From: Escherichia coli
GTDB lineage: Bacteria; Pseudomonadota; Gammaproteobacteria; Enterobacterales; Enterobacteriaceae
Reading direction: 5' to 3' (one strand)
Assembly (NCBI RefSeq): GCF_003334355.1
Contig: NZ_QOWP01000020.1
DNA: 64,000 nt
Positions 1 through 64,000 of the stretch are shown in pieces; the stretch's first letter is position 1, and each line of letters begins with the position of its first letter. Made by a program: the position numbers and the translations under genes. The notes under the pieces were generated by a model. That model did not search any database, was not told where the DNA came from, and worked only from the letters and a program-made list of their open reading frames with translations.

Positions 1-46
1 AAGTTTGCCCCCAATTTGCCCCATTTAGTACCAGAGAACTGAAATA

Positions 47-982
47 ATGCAAGAAAATCAACAAATTACAAAGAAAGAACAATACAACCTGAACAAATTA
101 CAAAAACGTCTGCGTCGTAACGTGGGCGAAGCCATTGCTGACTTCAATATGATTGAAGAAGGCGATCGCATCATGGTTTGCCTCTCCGGGGGTAAAGACA
201 GCTATACCATGCTGGAGATTCTGCGCAATTTGCAGCAAAGCGCGCCAATCAATTTTTCGCTGGTGGCTGTTAACCTCGATCAAAAGCAACCGGGCTTCCC
301 GGAACACGTTCTGCCCGAGTATCTTGAAAAGCTGGGCGTTGAGTACAAGATTGTTGAAGAGAATACTTACGGTATCGTGAAAGAGAAGATTCCAGAGGGC
401 AAAACCACTTGCTCACTGTGTTCTCGCCTTCGTCGCGGTATCCTTTATCGTACCGCAACGGAACTGGGGGCGACGAAGATCGCGTTGGGTCACCATCGTG
501 ACGATATCCTGCAAACGTTGTTCTTAAATATGTTCTACGGCGGTAAGATGAAAGGTATGCCTCCGAAACTGATGAGCGATGATGGCAAACATATCGTTAT
601 TCGTCCGCTGGCCTACTGCCGCGAGAAAGATATTCAGCGATTTGCCGATGCAAAAGCGTTCCCGATTATTCCGTGCAACCTGTGCGGTTCACAGCCTAAC
701 CTGCAACGTCAGGTGATTGCTGACATGTTGCGTGACTGGGATAAACGTTATCCAGGGCGTATCGAGACGATGTTCAGCGCGATGCAGAATGTGGTGCCGT
801 CGCATCTGTGCGATACCAACCTGTTCGATTTCAAAGGCATCACCCACGGTTCTGAAGTGGTTAACGGGGGTGATCTGGCGTTTGATCGCGAAGAGATCCC
901 ACTACAACCGGCGGGCTGGCAGCCAGAAGAAGATGAAAATCAGTTGGATGAGTTACGGCTGAATGTGGTTGAAGTGAAATAA
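47..982 (+). CDS. ttcA: tRNA 2-thiocytidine(32) synthetase TtcA
   Basis: 311-aa ORF with PP-loop SGGKDS motif and CxxC cysteines; translation matches E. coli TtcA as I recall it. Confidence 0.93.
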
Positions 983-990
983 CCAGGATA

Positions 991-1064
991 GCGCCCGATG
1001 CGCAAGCGTATCGGGCTACTCTTATGGAGGCCGGATAAGACGCGGCCAGCGTCGCATCCGGCAA
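991..1064. repeat. REP-like palindromic units in the ttcA-dbpA intergenic region
   Basis: GC-rich imperfect palindromes (cgcccgatgcgcaagcgtatcgggc; gccggataagacgcggccagcgtcgcatccggc) of the REP type, between convergent genes. Confidence 0.6.
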
Positions 1065-1110
1065 TCCCGAATAAGATGTTTACTCTTGCACCCGGCAATT
1101 CAACATTTCA

Positions 1111-2484
1111 TTATTTTAATAACCGCACCCGGCACGTTTTTCCTTTAATCTTCCCGCCCTGTAACTGTTTCCATGCTTTATGAGCAACAGCCTGACGGAC
1201 CGCGACATAGACATGCGCCGGATGCACGGCGATTTTGCCAATATCTGCGCCATCAAGCCCGATATCTCCTGTCAGTGCACCTAATACATCACCCGGGCGC
1301 ATTTTGGCTTTTTTCCCGCCATCGATACACAACGTTGCCATTTCTGCTTCCAGCGTCGCAATGGAACTATTAGCTGGCGGCGTTTGCCAGTTAAGTTTTA
1401 TCTGCAACATGTCAGAAATGATATTGGCCCGCTGTGCTTCTTCCGGAGCACAGAAACTGATCGCCAGACCGCTATTTCCTGCACGAGCTGTACGACCGAT
1501 GCGATGTACATGAACTTCAGGGTCCCACGCCAGCTCAAAGTTCACCACCAGCTCAAGCGATTTAATATCCAGACCACGCGCAGCAACATCAGTCGCGACC
1601 AGTACACGGGCGCTACCGTTAGCAAAACGTACCAGGGTCTGATCGCGATCGCGTTGCTCCAAATCGCCGTGTAATGACAATGCACTTTGCCCTACTTCAT
1701 TCAGCGCGTCGCAGACAGCCTGGCAATCTTTTTTGGTATTGCAAAACACCACGCAAGAGGATGGCTGATGCAAGCTTAATAACCGTTGCAACAGAGGAAT
1801 TTTGCCTTTGCTGGATGTCTCATAAAATTGTTGTTCAATGGGTGGCAAAGCATCTGTTGAGTCAATTTCAATCGCCAAAGGATCGCGTTGCACTCGTCCG
1901 CTGATTGCAGCGATGGCTTCCGGCCAGGTTGCCGAAAACAGAAGCGTCTGTCGAGATGCAGGCGCAAAACGGATGACATCATCAATGGCATCGCTAAATC
2001 CCATATCCAGCATGCGGTCGGCCTCATCCATCACCAGCGTATTCAACGCATCCAGTGATACCGTGCCTTTTTGCAGGTGATCCAGCAAACGCCCCGGCGT
2101 TGCCACGATAATATGCGGCGCATGTTGCAACGAATCACGCTGCATACCGAACGGTTGACCACCGCACAACGTCAAAATTTTGGTATTTGGCAGAAAACGC
2201 GCCAGCCGACGCAATTCACCTGCCACCTGATCCGCCAGTTCACGCGTAGGACACAGCACTAAAGCCTGGGTTTGAAATAGCGACGCATCAATTTGCTGTA
2301 ACAAGCCGAGGCCAAAAGCCGCCGTTTTGCCGCTGCCGGTTTTCGCCTGCACGCGAACATCTTTTCCGGCAAGGATCGCCGGAAGCGCGGCGGCCTGCAC
2401 CGGCGTCATGGTTAAATAACCCAACTCATTAAGGTTCGTGAGTTGGGCGGGAGGCAAAACATTCAGGGTAGAAAAAGCGGTCAC
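1111..2484 (-). CDS. dbpA: ATP-dependent DEAD-box RNA helicase DbpA
   Basis: 457-aa ORF with helicase motifs (AKTGSGKT, DEAD, SAT, HRIGRTAR); matches E. coli DbpA. Confidence 0.95.
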   Translation of the reverse strand: MTAFSTLNVLPPAQLTNLNELGYLTMTPVQAAALPAILAGKDVRVQAKTGSGKTAAFGLGLLQQIDASLFQTQALVLCPTRELADQVAGELRRLARFLPNTKILTLCGGQPFGMQRDSLQHAPHIIVATPGRLLDHLQKGTVSLDALNTLVMDEADRMLDMGFSDAIDDVIRFAPASRQTLLFSATWPEAIAAISGRVQRDPLAIEIDSTDALPPIEQQFYETSSKGKIPLLQRLLSLHQPSSCVVFCNTKKDCQAVCDALNEVGQSALSLHGDLEQRDRDQTLVRFANGSARVLVATDVAARGLDIKSLELVVNFELAWDPEVHVHRIGRTARAGNSGLAISFCAPEEAQRANIISDMLQIKLNWQTPPANSSIATLEAEMATLCIDGGKKAKMRPGDVLGALTGDIGLDGADIGKIAVHPAHVYVAVRQAVAHKAWKQLQGGKIKGKTCRVRLLK

Positions 2485-2513
2485 AATCTATTCTCGTGGT
2501 CATCGACGCAAAG

Positions 2514-2687
2514 TTAGCAGGCGCGTATCCTCGCAGATCTACGCTCACGATGCGACAATTTAATCGGTTCTTCATCGGGTGGTGGGTCAGGCATGGGTTG
2601 CGGGCGAGGGATCGGATCGGGCACTGGAACAGGATCGCCAGGAATCGGTTCAGGGACAGGAATTTGCAAATAAATAAGTGTCGTCAT
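2514..2687 (-). CDS. candidate small proline-rich protein (57 aa) upstream of dbpA
   Basis: My own translation of the minus strand: ATG at 2687 preceded by agaggg Shine-Dalgarno, giving MTTLIYLQIPVPEPIPGDPVPVPDPIPRPQPMPDPPPDEEPIKLSHRERRSARIRAC, stop at 2514-2516. Below the 60-aa cut-off of the ORF track. Confidence 0.4.
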   Translation of the reverse strand: MTTLIYLQIPVPEPIPGDPVPVPDPIPRPQPMPDPPPDEEPIKLSHRERRSARIRAC

Positions 2688-2961
2688 ATTTCCCTCTGGT
2701 CATTGGGTGGACTCTTAAAGGGTAGACGCTGATAAATAACAGGCAAAAAAAAGCCGACTCATCAAAGTCGGCGTCGTACGAATCAATTGTGCTATGCAGT
2801 AATTCAAAAAAGGAAGTAAGACAATATGGAGCGCAACGCCCATCGCTTGACGTTGCATTCACCTGCAAGAGAGATATTGCCCTGAATGGGTAGAGAGTTT
2901 ATTGACTTCGCTCAAACTTTGCGGCGTTTTTGTATACAGACAGCCGGAAAAATTGCTTTTG

Positions 2962-3966
<1,005 letters not shown>

Positions 3967-6179: not shown

Positions 6180-6337
6180 TTTTCGTGAAATCTGTCACTG
6201 AAGAAAATTGGCAACTAAAGGTTAAAACCGTTATAACACAGTCACCGGCGCAGAGGAGACAATGCCGGATTTAAGACGCGGATGCACTGCTGTGTGTACT
6301 GTAGAGTCTGGCGGATGTCGACAGACTCTATTTTTTT
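6180..6337 (+). ncRNA. isrA: candidate small RNA (IsrA-like) ending at an intrinsic terminator
   Basis: Plus-strand hairpin tagagtctggcggatgtcgacagactcta (6302-6330) followed by ttttttt, with no plus-strand CDS upstream. I recall a small RNA (IsrA/IS061) in the abgR-ydaL spacer of K-12. The 5' end is a guess. Confidence 0.35.
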
Positions 6338-6345
6338 ATGCAGTT

Positions 6346-14627: not shown

Positions 14628-14870
14628 GATGTAATCCTTGTGCAGACAAATTTCTTGTTACCTAAACGTAACAATACCATGACATTTCACCGTTGTCTGC
14701 TCTGAAAACCTCACCTCTTAGCTGGATTTACAATCAACGCATTGATTAGTTAGCTAATGTTGCTACTTCCTTCCCTGACTATTGATGATCTGAATGAATT
14801 GTCGCGGTAAAATAGCCCCGCCAGGGGTTTCCGGCATGACGACAATTATCTGGAGGAGCCTGATAAAACA

Positions 14871-20897: not shown

Positions 20898-20923
<26 letters not shown>
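20195..20923 (+). CDS. mpaA: murein peptide amidase A (gamma-D-Glu-mDAP amidase)
   Basis: ORF 20135..20923; likely start ATG at 20195 (MTVTRPRAERG...), 242 aa; M14 carboxypeptidase-like. Confidence 0.9.
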
Positions 20924-21905
<982 letters not shown>

Positions 21906-63820: not shown

Positions 63821-64000
63821 GGTGATGCTGCCAACTTACTGATTTAGTGTATGATGGTGTTTTTGAGGTGCTCCAGTGGCTTCTGTTTCTATCAGCTGTC
63901 CCTCCTGTTCAGCTACTGACGGGGTGGTGCGTAACGGCAAAAGCACTGCCGGACATCAGCGCTATCTCTGCTCTCACTGCCGTAAAACATGGCAACTGCA
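63821..64000 (+). mobile_element. IS1 insertion sequence, left end, truncated by the window edge
   Basis: ggtgatgctgccaacttactgatttagtgtatgatggtgtttttgaggtgctccagtggcttctgtttctatcagc... matches my recollection of the IS1 left terminal inverted repeat and the beginning of insA. Confidence 0.9.
63876..64000 (+). CDS. insA: IS1 InsA (partial, 5' part only)
   Basis: GTG start then [40 protein letters not shown]..., the InsA N-terminal zinc-finger region; the ORF continues beyond the window. Confidence 0.85.

Follow-up and report, generated by a model that had tools for sequence, protein, structure and literature searches.

The first 96 bases of the DNA analysed here, a 64,000-nucleotide stretch of an Escherichia coli contig (NCBI RefSeq assembly GCF_003334355.1, contig NZ_QOWP01000020.1; hereafter referred to as the window), very probably represent the attL of a lambdoid prophage of the Rac type integrated at this site, as judged by nucleotide sequence comparison with occupied and unoccupied sites. 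A Rac attL within ttcA has been described before (Liu 2015; Kasho 2021) and belongs to textbook K-12 biology; our only addition to it, a small one, is the conserved architecture of the TTTGCCCC repeats.

The attachment site at the left end of the window

An ATG at position 47 opens a 311-aa open reading frame (ORF) on the plus strand (47..982), which corresponds to the lysogen-type allele of ttcA, encoding tRNA 2-thiocytidine(32) synthetase (RefSeq WP_001157407.1). The TtcA sequence scored 513.9 bits against NCBIfam NF007972, above the curated whole-protein cut-off of 272 bits. Bases 1–3000 of the window are identical to those of strain H1, where RefSeq places ttcA on the same bases, and they differ from K-12 MG1655 by a single mismatch, at position 914. 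The coordinates and the ttcA assignment given in a preliminary description of this DNA, according to which the window starts 46 bp upstream of the gene, were thus correct, as confirmed by the ORF, the NF007972 match and the H1 annotation. Downstream of ttcA the gene order is dbpA, ynaL, zntB, dgcM, smrA and the abg operon, as in E. coli.

To locate the junction, we compared four sequences in one alignment: the window, the intR/ttcA junction of K-12, the far end of K-12 Rac beside uspF (ttcC′), and the uspF–ttcA region of strain WCHEC020031, which lacks a prophage. A 26-bp sequence, AAGAAAGAACAATACAACCTGAACAA, at positions 71–96 on the plus strand (ttcA codons 9–17) had the same bases in the attL of the window and of K-12, in K-12 attR and in the empty attB. 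The part that follows it on the right is host ttcA, in which the window and K-12 attL agreed with the empty site; on the left side of the 26-bp sequence, the window matched K-12 attL and neither the empty site nor K-12 attR. From this pattern, positions 71–96 are therefore assigned as the att core, that is, the crossover region, and positions 1–70 (plus strand) as the prophage-derived, integrase-proximal (P′) arm of a Rac-type attL, which is 100% identical to the attL of K-12 and H1 and absent from the empty site of WCHEC020031. In phage Rac-SA53 (KU052037), the attP annotation covers the position of the core, the sequence of which differs there at 3 bases. Within the window, the core is present as a single copy, and it did not occur in any of 100 shuffles; a search across the window for a second copy, representing an attR or a tandem element, found none with up to 3 mismatches allowed.

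The alignment also showed that the ttcA start codon and codons 1–8 (MQENQQIT), at 47–70 on the plus strand, are phage-borne and act as a surrogate for those of the host. An IHF consensus, AATCAACAAATTA (WATCAANNNNTTR), was read from the sequence beside the core, at 56–68 on the same strand; in K-12, GeF-seq has shown that IHF binds to this consensus in the Rac attL, close to the start codon of ttcA (Kasho 2021, PMC8407004). MQENQQIT differs at four residues from MSQNQEIS, the N-terminus found at the empty site and in K-12 ttcC′. Liu 2015 (PMC4632033) described this four-residue change in TtcA, together with two classes of N-terminus, with and without a rac-like prophage. Compared with the K-12 Rac attL of that study (Sci Rep 5:16074), positions 1–96 of the window are identical base for base, with the same core, the same MQENQQIT and the same IHF consensus.

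In K-12, H1 and KFu022, in all of which intR is intact, the stop codon of intR lies 5 nt upstream of the base equivalent to window position 1; the window therefore begins within the prophage and not beside it. The same proximity of intR bears out the view of the preliminary description that the window lies at the Rac/ttcA site, since the locus is the Rac integration site. Its wording that Rac is adjacent to ttcA was right as to location and needs correction as to structure: Rac is integrated into ttcA codons 9–17, and it is the prophage that provides the ribosome-binding region and the first eight codons, start codon included. Nor does the element begin just outside the window, as had been supposed, because the end of the prophage is the att core at 71–96 and bases 1–70 are prophage DNA.

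The mechanism that we propose for the formation of this junction is as follows. IntR, a recombinase of the tyrosine family that has an arm-binding domain at its N-terminus, acts together with IHF to join attP to the 26-bp core attB in ttcA, with attL (the left end of the window) and attR (ttcC′) as the recombination products. The order of elements serving this reaction in the window would be tandem TTTGCCCC repeats, IHF site and core. The phage arm next to intR brings a replacement ribosome-binding region, a start codon and the first eight codons, and by virtue of this surrogate 5′ end ttcA is left intact after integration, with four N-terminal substitutions, while the native 5′ end of ttcA is kept as ttcC′ at the other end of the prophage. 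In K-12, XisR drives excision, which restores the MSQNQEIS allele (Liu 2015, PMC4632033).

Occupied, unoccupied and decayed sites among E. coli genomes

We determined how often each allele occurs in 5,426 complete E. coli genomes. The 46-bp arm was present in 2,713 of the 5,426 (1,752 at ≥99% identity, 959 at 95–99% and 2 at 90–95%), and the unoccupied uspF–spacer–ttcA junction was contiguous in 2,489. Approximately 200 genomes had neither the arm nor the unoccupied junction, presumably because of other arm types or rearrangements. When the empty-junction query was matched to lysogens, the matches ended precisely at the last base of the core, which corresponds to attR. With a query made up of the arm and the final 600 nt of intR, 2,919 genomes gave a match of any kind; full-length intR plus the arm was covered to at least 80% in 1,832 genomes. 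Evenly spaced rows sampled from the results of the intR-plus-arm queries reached the last base of the arm under an integrase annotation in 60 of 60 and in 40 of 40 cases, the weakest of them covering 192 nt. Because all of the sampled arms were contiguous with an integrase, presence of the arm predicts an integrase gene, or a fragment of one, directly upstream.

Given that the unoccupied state was found in 2,489 of the 5,426 genomes, the window might be thought to run into the uspF–ttcA spacer of a site in which a prophage was never present. In the empty site of WCHEC020031, uspF is followed by a 175-bp spacer and ttcA, and alignment of this region with the window is possible only from base ~54 onwards. 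At an unoccupied attB, the uspF terminator and the 175-bp spacer are continuous with a native MSQNQEIS ttcA, whereas bases 1–53 of the window could not be aligned with the spacer and its N-terminal codons are of the lysogen type. An unoccupied site is thus refuted by the window itself, and we give it practically no weight. The preliminary description had stated that nothing in the first 46 bp allowed the presence of an element to be recognized, and had considered that a conserved core gene might continue upstream. The first statement proved mistaken, because the 46-bp arm and MQENQQIT constitute a lysogen-type allele absent from unoccupied sites; the second, which would concern uspF, is excluded by the failure of bases 1–53 to match the uspF–ttcA spacer. 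As a rule for annotation, the 46 bases preceding ttcA and the first eight TtcA codons suffice to reveal a Rac-type element or its scar at this site, even at the end of a contig.

We also considered whether the 46-bp allele could be the ancestral host sequence. This was rejected: the other allele survives in K-12 as ttcC′, where Rac ends on the far side, and a free phage and viral contigs have the 46-bp arm linked to the far arm in an attP.

None of the 5,426 complete genomes was identical to the window. The nearest was that of PSS-12, with 12 SNPs in 37.5 kb and an identity of 99.9% over 39–64 kb of the window, as compared with 99.4% for the next best genome. PSS-12 has 27.7 kb of Rac-like DNA between uspF and ttcA, riddled with IS1, IS3, IS1203, IS421 and IS5, and its intR is split by IS5. 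The distance between uspF and ttcA is 27.8 kb in KFu022 and 23.2 kb in K-12, and intR is intact in both strains, as it is in H1; in MLI023K1, a 9.0-kb remnant is left at this place and intR is truncated by IS1. The partner attR (ttcC′) is present in K-12, PSS-12, MLI023K1 and KFu022. On the strength of these relatives, the DNA directly upstream of the window is probably a Rac-type element in the form of a decayed cryptic prophage of ~9–28 kb, the body of which, again judged by the relatives, would differ from K-12 Rac in length and IS content. The suggestion in the preliminary description that an element might sit upstream of the window was right.

Not every arm is preceded by a prophage of this size. 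In phylogroup B2 strains such as 536 and CFT073, the prophage has been deleted and a short scar remains, comprising the arm and a small integrase fragment, and a scar of this kind could conceivably precede the window as well, in which case no real element would be located there. In strain 536, uspF and ttcA are 2.3 kb apart and a 231-bp fragment of the integrase 3′ end adjoins the arm, indicating that the arm can outlive the prophage; approximately 1,050 genomes matched no more than the arm and the final 237 nt of intR, and the close relative MLI023K1 is already reduced to 9 kb. However, the window matches the K-12 type of the 46 bp at 100%, and the scar type departs from it at 2 positions (95.7%). 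In addition, each of the five close relatives examined (H1, K-12, PSS-12, KFu022 and MLI023K1) has Rac-type DNA of 9 kb or more in which xisR/intR or large parts of intR are preserved. A mere scar is accordingly improbable for the source strain, and from the contrast between the two mismatches of the B2 scar arm and the exact K-12 type of the window, a decayed Rac-type cryptic prophage would be expected upstream.

Two other arrangements deserve mention. In 536 (L007, 6958–9284), the 2.3-kb Rac-like scar holds a DUF1627 fragment in addition to the 231-bp integrase fragment, and TtcA has a lysogen-type N-terminus; the B2 scar probably explains the CFT073 “exception” of Liu 2015 (PMC4632033). In SL112 (L052, NZ_CP043486.1, 5880–7025), zntB comes directly after intR, the 46-bp arm and the core, with ttcA and dbpA deleted, and the annotation of zntB has been extended into intR.

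TTTGCCCC repeats in the attachment-site arms

The integrase-proximal arm of the window contains two TTTGCCCC repeats on the plus strand, at 4–11 and at 15–22, the second starting 11 bp after the first. The exact octamer is not enriched across the window as a whole (7 found versus 3.4 expected). A scan of IMG/VR with a degenerate core yielded 40 loci, which, together with the other loci analysed here, provided 17 unique integrase-proximal arms. These arms, belonging to at least five sequence types, aligned to positions 1–96 of the window without any gap. Within the 46 bp, the only blocks conserved among the 17 were TTTGCC(CC) at 4–11 and TGCCCC at 17–22, both falling in the repeats, and bases 27–46 varied among arm types. 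The repeats lie after the intR stop codon, and their conservation is therefore not explained by coding constraint.

The motif recurs on the other side of the core. Three to four copies of TGCCCC, located +106 to +150 from the core and oriented as in the proximal arm, were carried by 22 of 24 unique far arms; the remaining two had fewer repeats, with one or two copies. None of the 24 had TGCCCC on the opposite strand. In K-12 Rac, four further copies of TTTGCCCC lie in the far arm, all with the orientation kept and the last with one mismatch. A true attP, consisting of proximal arm, core and far arm, was intact in five viral contigs (L021, L025, L037, L046 and L047). IntR of H1 contains an N-terminal Arm-DNA-bind_2 domain (4e-26) and a catalytic Phage_integrase domain (2.5e-22). 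Two features of the att site of a lambda-type heterobivalent integrase were observed, namely an integrase with a separate arm-binding domain and a repeated motif that is found on both arms and is distinct from the core.

These observations lead us to regard the TTTGCCCC repeats, with moderate confidence, as candidate IntR arm-type sites, a role that we infer from their placement and conservation. In the literature library searched, nothing relevant was found on mapped IntR arm-type sites or on the TTTGCCCC motif, and the conserved repeats offer concrete, testable candidates for such sites. Alternatively, an accessory protein such as XisR could bind the repeats, or they could be a by-product of the intR end, with XisR binding as the main rival to the IntR arm-type reading. 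XisR shifts a 294-bp attR fragment in EMSA, where its site is unmapped, and TTTGCCCC copies are more numerous in the far arm (3–4) than in the integrase-proximal arm (2). Excisionase sites of the lambda type, however, occupy one arm only, whereas the TTTGCCCC motif is found on both arms in the same orientation, and the arm-binding domain of IntR needs such sites; we consider it rather unlikely, therefore, that the repeats serve something other than IntR.

The inducible Rac-type phages Rac-SA53 (KU052037) and PHB10 (MK524177) share their attP layout with the window arm: the intR stop is followed by two tandem (T)TTGCCCC repeats, a surrogate ttcA start, the core and three far-arm repeats. Rac-SA53 differs in its core (AAGAAAGAGATATAC...) and in its leader, MQENQKNT; in PHB10, the arm has diverged outside the repeats, and the integrase 3′ end and attP region show ~75% DNA identity. 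The arrangement also resembles attP/attL of lambda (Int arm sites P′1–3 and IHF site H′), in which tandem direct repeats and an IHF site lie beside the core on the integrase-adjacent arm, the repeat recurs in the other arm, and the excisionase acts at attR. It differs from lambda in the arm-binding family (Arm-DNA-bind_2 here), in the motif and in the number of proximal sites, of which lambda has three as compared with the two candidates here. Furthermore, unlike that of lambda, the attB at ttcA is located within a coding sequence.

The ttcA leader, its transcription and the rest of the window

Among arm types, the phage-borne leader varies in sequence, and its length and frame are constant. 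In the viral contig IMGVR_UViG_3300011131_000011 (L016; ~100 nt 5′ of the core), the leader is MSQNQEIN, which is nearly the native N-terminus of the host protein; the phage-borne ttcA leaders therefore make up a diverse family of equal length and in frame. The ungapped, in-frame conservation of the leader across arm types suggests that phages have been selected to keep host ttcA working. A comparable situation exists for e14 and phage 21 in icd, where a gene end carried by the phage acts as a surrogate and keeps the target functional with few amino acid changes. Whereas e14 and phage 21 replace the 3′ end of icd, at ttcA it is the 5′ end that is replaced, including the translation start and the promoter-proximal DNA.

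In lysogens, only 51 bp separate intR from ttcA, and this interval lacks a terminator. In consensus scans for a sigma-70 promoter or a terminator in the interval from intR to ttcA, none appeared closer than 900 bp to the start of ttcA. At the empty site, the uspF terminator is present and a consensus scan gave one weak promoter-like match; in lysogens, the native spacer with this terminator and promoter-like site stays at attR, 9–28 kb away. With the native spacer left at attR and no terminator or consensus promoter nearby, ttcA may be transcribed from the prophage, which we put forward as a lead and not as a result. A combined scheme, in which ttcA of lysogens has lost its own promoter and is driven by read-through from xisR–intR, and in which the TTTGCCCC arrays are arm-type sites of an IntR of the Arm-DNA-bind_2 class, is a tentative one that we hold to be possible but doubtful. 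If it were true, prophage regulation (RpoS/XisR) would extend to the s2C32 thiolation of tRNA in half of all E. coli.

The remainder of the window yielded several minor observations. The small RNA genes FnrS (2749–2866, minus strand; 134.8 bits) and McaS (6244–6339, plus strand; 118.4 bits) are in their usual places, with nothing unusual about them. At about position 14750, the window lacks the IS5 that K-12 MG1655 has between ynaJ and ynaI. From this absence it follows that the source strain, despite its identical attL, is not a K-12 derivative.

The gene ycjG, encoding L-Ala-D/L-Glu epimerase (20898–21863, minus strand), contains a premature stop at 21555–21557, corresponding to codon 103 of 321. 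The stop is due to one of the 12 SNPs that distinguish the window from PSS-12, position 21557 being A in the window and G in PSS-12, and ycjG of the source strain is probably a pseudogene. At the right end of the window, an IS1 (63822–64000) begins 112 bp downstream of rnb, with its inverted repeat GGTGATGCTGCCAACTTACTGATTTAGTG at 63822, and continues past the window end; it is 98.9% identical to the IS1 within the Rac remnant of H1.
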